The notes under the pieces: generated by a model
What the model was told of the DNA's origin: nothing
Databases searched by the model: none
The model's input: the letters and a program-made list of their open reading frames with translations, nothing else
Made by a program: the position numbers and the translations under genes
Assembly (NCBI RefSeq): GCF_003334335.1
Contig: NZ_QOWQ01000084.1
Reading direction: 5' to 3' (one strand)
Source of the DNA: Escherichia coli
Lineage (GTDB): Bacteria > Pseudomonadota > Gammaproteobacteria > Enterobacterales > Enterobacteriaceae
DNA: 3,487 bases
In this document: positions 1-3,487 of the stretch, in pieces
Layout of the letters: every line of letters begins with the position of its first letter
How positions within the stretch are numbered: position 1 is the first letter of the stretch

Positions 1-977
1 GTCAGAAATATACGGCCGGCAAGGTGTGGAGCTGAGCCGTTCACTGCTGTCGGGCTGGGTGGATGCATGCTGCCGGCAGTTGTCTCCGCTGGAAGAGGCG
101 CTTCATGGCTATGTGCTGACTGACGGTAAGCTCCATGCTGATGACACGCCTATCCCGGTGCTGTTGCCAGGCAATAAGAAAACGAAGACCGGGCGGTTAT
201 GGACCTACGTTCGTGACGACCGTAACGCCGGGTCAACGCTGGCGCCGGCGGTGTGGTTCGCTTACAGCCCGGACAGAAAAGGCATCCATCCGCAGACCCA
301 TCTTGCGGGGTTCAGTGGTGTACTGCAGGCGGATGCATACGCCGGGTTCAACGAGCTGTACCGGGATGGCCGGATAACGGAAGCCGCCTGTTGGGCTCAC
401 GCCCGCCGTAAAATCCACGATGTGCACGTTCGCACCCCGTCAGCCCTGACGGAGGAAGCGCTGAAACGGATCGGCGAACTGTACGCCATCGAGGCAGAGA
501 TAAGGGGAATGACGGCGGAGCAGCGCCTTGCCGAACGTCAGTTGAAAACGAAACCGCTGCTGAAATCCCTGGAAAGCTGGCTGCGTGAAAAGATGAAAAC
601 CCTGTCGCGACACTCAGAACTGGCGAAAGCGTTCGCATACGCCCTGAACCAGTGGCCGGCGCTGACGTACTATGCAGATGATGGCTGGGCTGAGACGGAC
701 AATAACATCGCTGAAAATGCGTTGCGGATGGTCAGTCTGGGCCGCAAAAACTACCTGTTCTTCGGTTCGGATCATGGAGGAGAGCGGGGAGCGCTGCTGT
801 ACAGCCTGATCGGGACGTGCAAACTGAACGGAGTGGAGCCAGAAAGCTACCTCCGCTATGTCCTTGACGTCATAGCCGACTGGCCGATAAACCGGGTCGG
901 CGAACTGCTCCCCTGGCGCGTAGCACTGCCGACTGAATAACACATCCCCGTCAATACGGTTCTTGCTGCACGCTTAC
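1..977 (+). mobile_element. IS66-family insertion sequence, right (3') end; inferred terminus near 977
   Basis: Transposase gene ends at 940. The minus-strand reading of 962-977 is 5'-GTAAGCGTGCAGCAAG, and IS66-family ends are recalled to begin 5'-GTAAGCG. The flanking minus-strand gene appears interrupted exactly here. The boundary is inferred and could be off by a few bp. Confidence 0.65.
2..940 (+). CDS. IS66-family transposase, C-terminal portion (5' end outside the window)
   Basis: Reading frame is open from position 2 with no upstream stop, so the gene is truncated by the window edge; stop TAA at 938-940. The C-terminal sequence ...[52 protein letters not shown]...ELLPW matches the conserved C-terminal signature I recall for IS66-family transposases. 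The ORF track's GTG at 26 is probably not the real start. Confidence 0.88.
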
Positions 978-1164
978 CCTTCTGTTGCTCACTCAGGGCA
1001 TGTAAATCATGCTCAAACCACGCCCCCTGAGCATCTGTCTGCAGAATCAACCGGCCATGACAGGAAAGGCAGAAACAATGCCGGATATTTCTGCTGAGCG
1101 CAGAGTCGGCACTGATAATGTGCTCACCCGGCGTGATCCCCAGCCCCGTTTTTATACCGTTCAT
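978..1164 (-). pseudogene. N-terminal fragment (~62 codons) of a second zinc-ribbon protein, paralogous to the 1161-1544 gene, apparently disrupted by the IS66 insertion
   Basis: ATG at 1164-1162 overlaps the TGA of the upstream gene (ATGA coupling). The product MNGIKTGLGITPGEHIISADSALSRNIRHCFCLSCHGRLILQTDAQGAWFEHDLHALSEQQK shares a C-x2-C-(14-15 residues)-WFEH motif with the upstream protein. The computed ORF (856-1164) continues into IS66 sequence, which is taken to be a fortuitous read-through. Confidence 0.45.
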
Positions 1165-1544
1165 TCTGCTACCCCCTCCTCACTGAAACGCCCGGTCTGG
1201 CAGTGTGTGCAGTACTGCTCCCCATAATAATCGTGGTGACATTGCCTGCAGTACCAGCTGGCTTTACGTACCACGGGTAAGGCATCCGGGACGAATTGCT
1301 GCAGACGTTTAATCAACCGTATTTCTCTGCGTTCCGGCCTGACATAAGGACATTGCTGCGCGTGCTCCGTCAGCCCGTCGTCAGTGTGTTCAAACCAGGG
1401 CCGTTCGGTGTCGTATTGCGGGTGGTATCTGAGTGCACTGCCGCAAAGGTGGCAGGTGTAGTGGGCATAAGGAGCAGTCTGTGCGGTACGGGCACCGATC
1501 AGACGTCCGTTGCCATCAAGTGCGAGAAAAGATTTTGCGTACAT
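1161..1544 (-). CDS. Small double zinc-ribbon protein (127 aa) with CoiA-N-terminal-like CxxC...WFEH motif
   Basis: ATG at 1544 with GAGGA about 10 nt upstream on the minus strand. N-terminal module YAKSFLALDGNGRLIGA...CHLCGSALRYHPQYDTERPWFEH resembles the N-terminal zinc ribbon of CoiA-like proteins (CPxC...HFAH). C-terminal module CRQCHHDYYGEQYCTHC is a second CxxC-x9-CxxC knuckle pair. No nuclease domain is present. Confidence 0.6.
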   Translation of the reverse strand: MYAKSFLALDGNGRLIGARTAQTAPYAHYTCHLCGSALRYHPQYDTERPWFEHTDDGLTEHAQQCPYVRPERREIRLIKRLQQFVPDALPVVRKASWYCRQCHHDYYGEQYCTHCQTGRFSEEGVAE

Positions 1545-1710
1545 AGTATATGTTCCTCTGCGCCAGACGACACGCAGGCAACAGCCGTCCCGGTACGGGC
1601 AGCGTGGTCAGGTGTGAATGGCGGTTTTCAGTTCAGTCTCAGAAGGGAAAATCAGTGTGGTCGCTGTGAACACGTCATCACACTAAGGTCAGATAAGTCG
1701 TCTGTCGGGC

Positions 1711-2280
1711 TCAGCCACGACTGCAGCCAAAATTGCGCTCACCGGTGCCGTAAGCTTTGGTACTCTCCTTCGCCAGATAGTCAGCACGCTCCAGCACCTG
1801 CTGAAAGCCGGTGTCATCATCGCGTTCCAGCCACACCGCCGGCCTGACCGGAAAATGTGCCAGCGTGTCATAACGTCCGGCATCCACTCCCAGGGCACTG
1901 CACCACGCCTGTTTAATCATCCCGGCCAGTGATCCCGGAGCGCGGTAATCGCCGGCACGACACCAGGTATCCCGGTTGACCAGCAGCATCAGGTGATAGT
2001 GTTTTTTACCTTTGCACTCCCCAAACTCCCGGGCCCAGACGTAATGCAGGGTTGTGGGATGCACGCGTTTACCTTCCCGATGCTTACGTTTCTGGTAAGC
2101 GTCGATTCGGGCTTTCAGGGCATTGATGAAGCGGGATATCACAGCTGCGTCCGTTGCTGCCGGTACATCCGGGAGACGCAGGTCAACCCGCAATGCCGTC
2201 AGGCGGGGATGAACATTCAGTGCGTGCCGCACCGTCTCACGAATACGTTGCTGCCAGAAGGGGTTGTATTTGTAGGTCAT
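1711..2280 (-). CDS. HUH-motif rolling-circle Rep-like protein, YagK/YfjJ (Inovirus Gp2-like) family (189 aa)
   Basis: ATG at 2280 preceded by GGAGAT (revcomp of 2287-2292); stop TGA at 1711-1713. Product starts MTYKYNPFWQQRIRETVRHALNVHPRLTALRVDLRLPD, as I recall for YagK/YfjJ cryptic-prophage proteins. It contains HYHLMLL (HUH motif 2) and ADYLAKESTKAY (YxxK-type motif 3). The track's extension to 2316 lacks an ATG or RBS and covers the hairpin, so 2280 is the preferred start. Confidence 0.7.
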   Translation of the reverse strand: MTYKYNPFWQQRIRETVRHALNVHPRLTALRVDLRLPDVPAATDAAVISRFINALKARIDAYQKRKHREGKRVHPTTLHYVWAREFGECKGKKHYHLMLLVNRDTWCRAGDYRAPGSLAGMIKQAWCSALGVDAGRYDTLAHFPVRPAVWLERDDDTGFQQVLERADYLAKESTKAYGTGERNFGCSRG

Positions 2281-2289
2281 GGTTAAATC

Positions 2290-2308
2290 TCCGTATGGTT
2301 CATACGGA
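2290..2308 (-). promoter_or_regulatory. Perfect 8-bp inverted repeat (TCCGTATG-GTT-CATACGGA) overlapping the Shine-Dalgarno of the HUH-protein gene
   Basis: Read directly from the sequence. The 3' arm on the minus-strand mRNA contributes the GGA of the GGAG ribosome-binding site, 7-10 nt upstream of ATG 2280. Confidence 0.35.
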
Positions 2309-2412
2309 ATAACCACGTCGTAAAAAATGCGCAGAACCCCTGAGGTGACCTCCGGCAGGACACTGTCTCAGGCACTCTGTGATAACCCGAACGGTCATCG
2401 CCGGACTGACGA

Positions 2413-2441
2413 TTGAATTCCCGGCGTTGTTTTTTTAATGT
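2413..2441 (+). promoter_or_regulatory. Candidate sigma70 promoter for the small zinc-ribbon membrane protein gene
   Basis: TTGAAT (2413-2418), 17-bp spacer, TAATGT (2436-2441). Sits in an AT-rich tract with T7/A6 dyad symmetry, about 40 bp upstream of the SD. Confidence 0.3.
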
Positions 2442-2481
2442 AAAAAACAGGTTACGGATAAGGCGTGGAGAGGGAGCGATC

Positions 2482-2676
2482 GTGATATGCAAAAAGAAGT
2501 GCAGGGACTGTGGTAACGCAATTACTCATAATACAGTATGTTGCCCGTATTGTGGCGCTGTCGACCCCTTCGGTTATTACCGGAAGACCGATCGTCTGCT
2601 CTGTTTACTGACGTTACTGCTGCTGCTGATTCTGGTTACCGTTTCAGGCGTCAGTGTATTTGTACTGTTGCAGTAG
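2482..2676 (+). CDS. Small zinc-ribbon protein with C-terminal transmembrane helix (64 aa, GTG start)
   Basis: GTG at 2482 lies 5 nt after GGAGAGGGAG (2467-2476). Product MICKKKCRDCGNAITHNTVCCPYCGAVDPFGYYRKTDRLLCLLTLLLLLILVTVSGVSVFVLLQ has a CxxC-x10-CPYC zinc ribbon followed by a roughly 25-residue hydrophobic segment. Stop TAG at 2674-2676. The track's TTG at 2413 coincides with the predicted -35 box and is unlikely to be the start. Confidence 0.5.
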   Translation: MICKKKCRDCGNAITHNTVCCPYCGAVDPFGYYRKTDRLLCLLTLLLLLILVTVSGVSVFVLLQ

Positions 2677-2702
2677 GTTACAGGGGAGGGATTATCAGGA
2701 AT

Positions 2703-2736
2703 CGGCGGGGCAGAGCGACCCGCTGCGTTTGTTGTG
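2703..2736 (+). terminator. Candidate intrinsic terminator downstream of the small zinc-ribbon gene
   Basis: 7-bp GC-rich stem (2703-2709 pairing with 2719-2725, one G-U pair), 9-nt loop, then a T-rich but interrupted tail CGTTTGTTGTG. Confidence 0.3.
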
Positions 2737-2792
2737 CCAGACAGTAACGCACCGGCTCCCTGCAAAATGGTACCTGAATCAATCACAGTCAG

Positions 2793-2829
2793 GTATTCCG
2801 CCAATCCGTGATCGAATCGAGCGGAATAC
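2793..2829. repeat. Perfect 9-bp inverted repeat GTATTCCGC / GCGGAATAC with a 19-bp spacer containing a tandem ATCGA-ATCGA and a GATC site
   Basis: Read directly: 2793-2801 is the reverse complement of 2821-2829. Spacer is CAATCCGTGATCGAATCGA. Confidence 0.5.
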
Positions 2830-3220
2830 TCAGCCCCGACAAATACGAGTCCCCTTCAGAAGATACAGGCCGGTAATGCCTGAACGCCTGCCCCTCTGTA
2901 CACCATTCCCTTTTGATTTCGAATTCTTTGTTGCCGTTATACTGCTTAATGTTCCCGATCTTCCGGTGCACAGATAACACCGGAGTCATCGTAGCGCGGA
3001 TTCAAGATTCAGGTGACATATTTCCAGACGGAAGCCGGCACGCGATCGTAAAGTTTGTTCATTGTCAGTTCTGCCAGCCGGTGATCGACCGCAGAGTTAA
3101 AGGCTTCCAGCTCCGCAGGGGTAAGTTTATAACGTGTGTGGGAAATCACTTTTTCCAGCGTCTCCCGGGATGAACAACGACGGAACTGCTCTGGTTTTAA
3201 CTTCCATTCGTCTCTCGTTA

Positions 3221-3487
<267 letters not shown>

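Follow-up and report, generated by a model that had tools for sequence, protein, structure and literature searches.

Two recent studies have described genomic islands that resemble the locus considered here. In islands integrated at the tmRNA gene of Pseudomonas, intY, alpA and an adjacent 'inovirus Gp2-like' gene are the likely core, and the islands are transferred by a jumbo phage (PMC12595487, 2025). In defence-carrying mobile genetic elements of Escherichia coli, AlpA and an HUH Rep-like initiator have been given as core genes, with RadC/ArdB and CbtA/CbeA modules at the far end; that report's text and accessible supplements do not mention zinc-ribbon proteins (PMC12458937, 2025 preprint). 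We analysed a 3,487-nucleotide stretch of E. coli DNA (assembly GCF_003334335.1, contig NZ_QOWQ01000084.1), hereafter the window, in which an initial annotation, made from the letters alone, had proposed a cluster at 978-2676 comprising an HUH-nickase-like gene, two tandem zinc-ribbon (ZnR) genes and a divergent gene for a membrane zinc-ribbon protein. It recognised no described system in this combination. That view stands in part: no protein of the cluster maps to a characterised, unrelated function and the partnership with zinc-ribbon proteins appears undescribed, whereas the HUH gene already figures beside AlpA in the literature, by prediction, as a core Rep-like island gene (PMC12595487; PMC12458937). 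The new element is the tight cross-genus linkage of the HUH gene to one or two dedicated proteins with two zinc sites each. We tentatively read the cluster, at somewhat short of an even chance, as a conserved part of the backbone of AlpA-type islands that integrate into tRNA or tmRNA genes, in which an HUH nickase with ZnR accessory subunits would start rolling-circle replication after excision. Its three same-strand genes lie where they had first been placed, as follows.

1711-2280, minus strand: YagK/YfjJ-family ('inovirus Gp2 family') predicted HUH Rep-class endonuclease of 189 amino acids, identical to WP_000221523.1 and assigned from Pfam, conserved residues and fold; motif I R31-x-D33-L34, invariant E85, HUH motif H94-Y-H96, motif III Y168-L-A-K171.
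1161-1544, minus strand: ZnR1, 127 amino acids with two predicted zinc sites (DUF7828 2e-31, Zn_ribbon_11 6e-8); the N-terminal site C31-x2-C34...F51-E52-H53...C65 corresponds to DUF7828 and the C-terminal ribbon C99-x2-C102...C112-x2-C115 to Zn_ribbon_11.
978-1164, minus strand: ZnR2, a second DUF7828/Zn_ribbon_11 paralogue, here a pseudogene cut after codon 62 by an insertion sequence (IS) of the IS66 family.

The HUH protein matched the Pfam family YagK_YfjJ_C (PF11726) over the full length of the model (E 3.9e-48; positions 1-170 of 170), and weakly matched the inovirus/plectrovirus Rep family REP_ORF2-G2P (PF23343; 4e-5, 43 of 99 model positions) over the HUH strands. In an alignment of 117 diverse family members E85 was invariant, and R31, D33, L34, W82, H94, H96, N102, Y168, K171 and K175 were kept in at least 90%. 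An AlphaFold2 model of high confidence (predicted local distance difference test score, pLDDT, 96) set H94-Y-H96 on a strand (93-102), as in an HUH motif, and Y168 and K171 at the end of a helix (156-170), as for a YxxK tyrosine. The motifs run in the Rep-class order, motif I, HUH and then tyrosine, with an acidic residue on the adjacent strand. The modelled fold was that of an HUH/Rep nuclease, the best solved neighbours being the Rep nickase domains of SIRV1 ORF119, parvovirus NS1, adeno-associated virus (AAV) Rep, RepB, Helraiser and the Reps of circular Rep-encoding single-stranded DNA (CRESS) viruses. Scores were 8.1-7.4 for the NS1 proteins of minute virus of mice (MVM), B19 and bocavirus, 7.2 for Helraiser, 7.0 for AAV5 Rep, 6.7 for pMV158 RepB, 6.3 for TnpA-REP and about 6 for several CRESS Reps, and the top 60 neighbours contained no MOB relaxase. 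Membership of the MOB-type HUH relaxases was rejected on this last ground and because the tyrosine lies after the HUH motif. We confidently predict, from the conserved residues and the model, that the protein is an HUH nickase of the Rep class, and the original 'HUH-nickase-like' call is well supported, since Pfam, the catalytic residues and a fold neighbourhood of Reps free of MOB relaxases all bear it out.

A search of solved structures by sequence gave no match to this protein. Identity with the inovirus G2P was considered and rejected, since the PF23343 match was partial and no genuine phage record carried the gene; the sole match in a tblastn search of 50,697 phage records was an unverified 4.5-kb fragment resembling island DNA. 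The name 'inovirus Gp2', assigned by the Prokaryotic Genome Annotation Pipeline (PGAP), is not well supported and overstates the relationship to the gene II protein. When the window was compared pairwise with three diverged loci, the ratio of non-synonymous to synonymous substitution rates (dN/dS) was 0.22-0.29 for the HUH gene, 0.10-0.20 for ZnR1 and 0.06-0.36 for the remaining stub of ZnR2, and all three genes are thus under purifying selection.

Co-occurrence of the genes in other genomes had been set beforehand as the test of the cluster. One genome per species (GTDB) was scanned with the ZnR alignment as query, which gave 22 loci, and six-frame open reading frames (ORFs) of these and of earlier loci were searched with profiles for HUH, ZnR, AlpA, Hha, the small membrane protein and a further protein termed hyp190/197. 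Comparison loci carry L-numbers, among them L003 (E. coli O104:H4 2011C-3493), L004 (a related E. coli locus), L005 (Klebsiella) and L043 (strain 2013C_3277). An HUH-family ORF lay on the same strand as the ZnR genes and within about 1.5 kb of them in 20 of the 22 species-level loci, across some 18 enterobacterial genera, and the two exceptions were ZnR fragments only; the arrangement therefore passed. An AlpA excisionase-type gene was usually close by. The order HUH-AlpA-ZnR-ZnR, with or without a second HUH-like gene, was found in Hafnia, Superficieibacter, Tenebrionibacter, Siccibacter, Yokenella, Yersinia and Citrobacter, and the order AlpA-hyp197-HUH-ZnR, with or without a second ZnR, in Klebsiella, Salmonella and Mixta. 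The pairing survived where the HUH protein had only about 20% identity to that of the window, such a divergent protein still keeping HxH and Y-M-A-K and matching PF23343 at 1.5e-4. Nor is the cluster rare, the HUH and ZnR genes being present in 3,848 and 3,801, respectively, of 5,426 complete E. coli genomes (about 70%).

When all 1.84 billion cluster representatives were scanned with HMMER, 709 clusters fell in the HUH family, while the ZnR family, with 303 clusters at 90% identity, was confined to Enterobacterales. Because the ZnR genes track the HUH gene while most of the HUH family lies outside their range, they are a later, Enterobacterales-specific addition to an older AlpA and HUH pair. 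Three contigs from metagenome-assembled genomes labelled Collinsella, Bacillota and Veillonella (L019, L020 and P0040) carried a locus 86-89% identical to that of E. coli (50% for P0040), most likely through bin contamination rather than a true range beyond Enterobacterales.

An autonomous transposon cassette of the IS91/IS200/RAYT kind, composed of the HUH and ZnR genes, would account for the several copies per genome (median 2, up to 9), for the two HUH and ZnR units that stand in tandem in Serratia, and for the presence of TnpA-REP and Helraiser among the fold neighbours. However, the same neighbours (AlpA, a YeeP-like GTPase and hyp190/197) recurred at every locus examined, so that copy number reflects multiple islands, and neither a terminal hairpin pair nor varied insertion contexts were seen. 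We hold such a cassette to be very improbable.

Two further genes recur at these loci. The first, found directly after the ZnR pair in many genera, encodes a second HUH-fold paralogue (Pfam UCP030791, or a weak YagK_YfjJ_C match; L008:7852-8391, L022:8908-9468, L025:8914-9468, L024:8906-9340 and L011:2737-3276). This protein has lost the HUH histidines, the conserved glutamate and the YxxK tyrosine and, judging by these losses, resembles an inactive partner or pseudo-enzyme adjoining the active nickase. In most loci alpA is directly followed by the gene for hyp190/197, a protein of 190-230 amino acids with no Pfam or NCBIfam match and with invariant residues that include T23, H40, P60, S105, E106, C139 and W140 (L001:16719-17291 and L005:5498-6091; also in L003, L004, L008, L021, L024, L034 and L038). 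It is a further uncharacterised core gene of AlpA-type islands.

ZnR1 and ZnR2 shared 22-28% identity in an alignment of ten sequences from five genera and are true paralogues. Twelve columns were invariant, and eight of these are the putative ligands C31, C34, H53, C65, C99, C102, C112 and C115; both DUF7828 and Zn_ribbon_11 were matched by 57-58 of 58 family members. The stop codon of ZnR1 and the start codon of ZnR2 overlap as ATGA at 1161-1164, and do so also in L003, L004 and L013. The proposed tandem paralogues and their overlap are thus confirmed, but in the window ZnR2 is a pseudogene with 62 of some 124-144 codons. The IS66 insertion has removed its fourth N-terminal-site ligand and the entire C-terminal ribbon, and the read-through ORF runs on to 856 inside the IS66 element. 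Intact copies elsewhere, those of L004 and L013 among them, encode 124-144 amino acids, that at L004:8813-9187 encoding 124. In L003 (8981-9202) ZnR2 is cut too, about 12-15 nucleotides (nt) from the IS66 breakpoint of the window, and the stub is followed by different DNA, first fragments and then tetA/mer resistance genes; either two separate truncations struck almost the same point or later remodelling changed the IS66 junction.

The description of the ZnR proteins as 'CoiA-N-like' fits their ligand pattern, but no CoiA family was listed for the 58 members among matches at E<=0.1, the presence of CoiA models in the library being unconfirmed. The ZnR1 model was confident, with a pLDDT of 89, and a search of solved structures with the ZnR profile gave noise only. 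UniProt entries of the family in Escherichia, Salmonella and Leclercia are often named 'DNA-directed RNA polymerase, beta subunit/140 kD subunit', an evident propagated annotation error; others are named 'Ybl85' or 'DUF3279'.

Small proteins with two zinc sites, often encoded directly after alpA in one transcription unit and, in E. coli-type loci, next to an Hha-family gene, could also be island transcription regulators in the manner of Ogr/Delta of P2/P4, acting with AlpA and the island Hha and merely co-located with the HUH gene, which does occur without them. Two results speak against this. None of the 58 ZnR members matched DNA-binding or Ogr_Delta families, and the ZnR genes track the HUH gene even where AlpA lies elsewhere, as it does in the window. 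We judge a purely regulatory role to be unlikely. Identity with Ogr/Delta itself was rejected, there being no match to the model and the ligand spacings differing from CxxC-x22-CxxxxC.

At all loci the HUH and ZnR unit lies between a conserved leftward operon and variable cargo. The operon runs from a GTPase gene through DUF932, antirestriction and RadC genes to a toxin-antitoxin pair, and at least 17 loci have a YeeP-like GTPase gene no more than a few kb away. The cargo beside the unit comprises, at different loci, nan genes, a type VI secretion system (T6SS), a set of SNF2, AAA, S8-protease and methylase genes, or AbpAB/RnlAB in K-12. The island of the window conforms to this: its backbone is that of CP4-57/CP4-44, with an AlpA-type helix-turn-helix gene, YfjI, a YeeP-like GTPase, Ag43, DUF905, DUF932 and an antirestriction gene, its cargo consists of sialic-acid catabolism (nan) genes, and alpA lies about 2.9 kb from the cluster on the opposite strand. 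The HUH and ZnR unit is island backbone flanking a cargo hotspot, and not cargo. In the Klebsiella locus (L005:7609-14387), genes for an SNF2-family helicase, an AAA ATPase, a Y4kK-type S8 protease and an N6/N4 methyltransferase directly follow the ZnR gene, and this cargo set looks like defence genes.

A defence or exclusion module, one of the two functions suggested at the outset, was also considered; in it a ZnR-guided nickase would attack incoming rolling-circle replicons (filamentous phages or microphages, and plasmids) and the membrane zinc-ribbon protein would be sensor or effector. The remote homology to an inovirus replication protein agrees with this idea, as does the position of the module beside defence cargo in several islands, AbpAB/RnlAB next to yfjJ in K-12 and the Klebsiella set among them. 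An apparent enrichment in defence islands can, however, be explained without a defence function, because a core gene adjoins a cargo hotspot. None of the four cluster proteins matched any family of PADLOC-DB v2 at E<=1, the module is an invariant backbone beside any cargo, including sugar catabolism and T6SS, and the membrane protein is lineage-restricted and decaying. The suggestion of a defence module was thus not upheld, and we regard it as distinctly improbable. The most likely function is a replication or transfer-initiation module rather than a new defence system; the replication or mobilisation role named as the other option fits the Rep-class fold, the intact catalytic residues, the operon-like setting with AlpA and the fixed backbone position.

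The replication reading draws on the fold, the conservation of catalytic residues, purifying selection, gene linkage and island context established here, and it would run as follows. AlpA and the integrase would drive excision of a circular island, which the 189-amino acid protein, produced with the excision regulator AlpA or from a gene beside it and acting as an active single-tyrosine nickase of the Rep class, would cut at a cognate site, possibly one of the hairpins beside its own gene, becoming covalently linked to the DNA through Y168. Rolling-circle replication would thereby be primed and would use the host helicase and polymerase, yielding multiple copies or single-stranded DNA (ssDNA) for maintenance or helper-borne transfer. 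The ZnR pair, encoded by overlapping genes and so perhaps made in a fixed ratio, would assist the nickase as accessory subunits, either by recognising the origin or ssDNA or by controlling how active it is. We infer the nicking activity, its substrate, the role in replication and any interaction between nickase and ZnR proteins. A bolder proposal, to which we give a small chance, is that the paired ZnR proteins represent subunits of a new class that confer specificity on a stand-alone HUH nickase or control it, the whole forming a replication- or packaging-initiation switch by which the commonest 'cryptic' islands of E. coli would undergo rolling-circle amplification and satellite-like hitch-hiking with a helper phage, or else a nickase redirected against incoming rolling-circle phages or plasmids.

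The backbone holds genes of the conjugation-entry type (antirestriction, DUF932, RadC-like and a toxin-antitoxin pair), and a homologue occurs in 72 plasmid records, 41 of them typed as conjugative. Rep-class initiators can stand in for relaxases in some systems. The HUH protein could therefore instead be a mobilisation relaxase that nicks an oriT on the excised island and pilots the strand into the secretion system of a helper plasmid or integrative and conjugative element, with the ZnR proteins as relaxosome accessories. We think this rather doubtful, since no coupling protein or other transfer gene lies nearby and related islands are moved by phage, not by conjugation (PMC12595487).

The remaining features of the window are as follows.

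2281-2481, no strand assigned: divergent intergenic region with several hairpins (folding z = -2.9).
2290-2308, mRNA sense of the minus strand: hairpin with a stem of 8-9 bp, directly 5' of the HUH start codon, with the Shine-Dalgarno sequence in its 3' arm.
2332-2379, 2396-2429 and 2428-2449: other intergenic hairpins.
1545-1710, no strand assigned: spacer between the HUH and ZnR1 genes, with an 11-nt inverted repeat (1561-1571/1697-1707); folding not significant (z = -1.6).
2479-2676, plus strand: small Cys4 zinc-ribbon protein of 64-65 amino acids with a C-terminal transmembrane segment; PGAP hypothetical protein, likely start GTG at 2482.
1-977, plus strand: 3' part of an IS66-family element (NCBIfam transpos_IS66 6e-97; PGAP annotation of an identical locus).
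26-940, plus strand: C-terminal 304 codons of tnpC, within the IS66-family part.
971-977: right terminal repeat of IS66, ending ...CGCTTAC.
3009-3188 (region considered to 3233), minus strand: island-borne Hha/YmoA-family gene, a pseudogene without start codon (PGAP; translation compared with the intact L013 copy).
3412-3487, plus strand: left end of an IS3-family element; IS3-free loci match only to 3411.

The dyad symmetries remarked on between the divergent genes are real. The region 2281-2481 (201 nt) holds several perfect dyads of 7-8 nt, and none of 200 shuffled sequences folded as well. The hairpin at 2290-2308 is kept in E. coli-type loci, with a 5-nt insertion in the loop in L003 and L013, and in other genera this position is taken by a hairpin of another stem, such as GGTTAT/ATAACC inside CCGGT/ACCGG. 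Stable hairpins abutting the HUH start codon were also located at L022:6706-6738 and L004 about 10540-10575. RNAalifold found no consensus hairpin on the MAFFT alignment, in which the arms were out of register. The 5' hairpin is striking in the window type and in several others, but as a family-wide regulatory element it was rejected, the mean pairing probability at -14 to -6 in a crude control being 0.55 for HUH, 0.52 for ZnR and 0.61 for AlpA genes. The 2290-2308 hairpin could be a translational brake or a recognition site of the nickase, and may merely limit translation because its 3' arm holds the Shine-Dalgarno sequence; we do not claim it as an origin. In many other genera alpA occupies the position of the spacer between the HUH and ZnR genes.

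The divergent gene for a membrane zinc-ribbon protein exists as annotated, its product having CxxC...CCPxC followed by about 25 hydrophobic residues, but it does not belong to the conserved module. It matched only weak Pfam zinc-ribbon models and PHROG families of unknown function (1e-5). The start codon is ATG in other strains and ATC in the window (2479), and GTG at 2482 is therefore the likely start; in strain 2013C_3277 the gene is frameshifted (L043:6274-6470). This loss of the ATG and the frameshift point to ongoing decay. The dN/dS was 0.50-0.69, against 0.1-0.3 for the other genes, and the gene was found in E. coli-type loci only, being missing from the related E. coli locus L004 and from all loci of other types. 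Because of this weak constraint, the damaged start, the frameshift and the narrow range, it is a lineage-specific add-on outside the conserved module.

By megablast, many complete E. coli chromosomes hold a locus identical to 941-3487, and the window is thus E. coli island DNA. PGAP gives on these loci, in order, an IS66 family transposase, a putative zinc ribbon protein (partial), a putative zinc ribbon protein, an inovirus Gp2 family protein, a hypothetical protein, Hha (partial) and an IS3 family transposase. The inferred setting, a mobile island beside an IS, is confirmed by the IS66 end at 977 and by the island backbone genes around it; the match to loci with an uninterrupted ZnR2 begins at 978, where the cluster had first been made to start. 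At the other edge the IS3 transposase start codon falls at window position 3483 (PGAP coding sequence from locus position 14543). L013 has a complete copy of the island Hha/YmoA paralogue, and other strains have partial or frameshifted ones. Chromosomal Hha reportedly promotes excision of CP4-57, and an island-encoded copy beside AlpA may have a regulatory role. Between the small gene and Hha lies an unannotated spacer of 332 nt (2677-3008), with a 66-codon ORF (2789-2989, minus strand) and a terminator-like hairpin (2866-2882, minus strand). Over the window an Rfam scan gave nothing credible and a promoter and terminator scan only chance-level hits, and NCBIfam had no family for any of the four cluster proteins. 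With ZnR2 cut by IS66, Hha startless, the small gene lacking its ATG and IS3 at the right edge, this copy of the module retains no more than an intact nickase and ZnR1.

Several points weigh against the replication reading. We found no functional study in the literature of yfjJ, yagK, DUF7828, PF11726, Zn_ribbon_11, Ybl85 or DUF3279, and hence no experiment on the family. Many such islands are regarded as cryptic. The ZnR1 model had no informative fold neighbour, and the 2290-2308 hairpin could equally be a translational element, its pairing of the Shine-Dalgarno sequence not being distinctive when compared with neighbouring genes. The HUH protein has no helicase domain, and a nearby YfjI helicase occurs in only some of the E. 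coli islands. A ZnR partner is missing from K-12 yfjJ and yagK and likewise from the majority of the 709 HUH clusters, so that the ZnR proteins would be dispensable for basic activity. Finally, IS elements border the copy in the window and have destroyed part of it.

YfjI, which matches a phage DNA-helicase family, was also considered as an obligatory helicase partner in a split Rep, and was rejected as a general rule since it lay within 8 kb of a ZnR gene only in two E. coli loci. Two small Klebsiella plasmids, L041 (NZ_CP056377.1, 5,525 bp) and NZ_CP056832.1 (of the 5.5-kb class), each have a distant Gp2-type HUH gene (27% identity) that retains HYH and YLAK, alongside genes for a serine recombinase and for a helix-turn-helix protein whose match to a plasmid replication DNA-binding protein falls below threshold; no Rep gene was recognised on either. 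As proof of Rep function they are ambiguous on account of that sub-threshold match, yet they could provide a natural test bed for Rep function in the family.

Most E. coli genomes, and many other Enterobacterales, harbour islands of this kind, whose cargo includes virulence, metabolic and anti-phage genes. A conserved HUH nickase, dedicated ZnR proteins and AlpA in one unit offer a concrete handle on how they replicate or move after excision. If the ZnR proteins are indeed cofactors of the nickase, they would be a new type of accessory for rolling-circle initiators; if the genes prove inert, they would be relics, and the spreading 'Rep-like' annotation would need toning down.

Among known systems, the HUH protein is nearest to the Rep-class HUH initiators (pMV158 RepB, SIRV1 ORF119, parvovirus NS1/AAV Rep and CRESS Rep), with which it shares motif I, the HUH motif, a single tyrosine in YxxK and the conserved acidic third ligand; like SIRV1 ORF119, it has the size of a stand-alone nuclease domain. 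It differs from them in being chromosomal and island-borne, in having no fused helicase or oligomerisation domain, in showing no detectable sequence similarity to the solved Reps, and in coming, in Enterobacterales, with one or two ZnR partners. We know of no such zinc-ribbon partners for those Reps.

As a whole, the locus belongs to the same class as the AlpA-type islands described previously, including alpA-yfjI-yfjJ of K-12 CP4-57, sharing with them the AlpA-adjacent HUH family, a far end that holds RadC, antirestriction and CbtA/CbeA genes, and variable cargo between (PMC12595487; PMC12458937). In those reports, however, the ZnR partners go unmentioned and function is likewise only predicted, and K-12 yfjJ and yagK stand without ZnR genes. 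To the inovirus G2P the likeness is the weak PF23343 match over the HUH strands, whereas our protein is much smaller than f1 gpII and was not found in the sequenced phages. The N-terminal halves of ZnR1 and ZnR2 have a ligand pattern, CxxC...aromatic-x-H...C, similar to that of the CoiA N-terminal zinc module; in contrast to CoiA, the ZnR proteins have no following nuclease domain and carry an additional C-terminal Cys4 ribbon.

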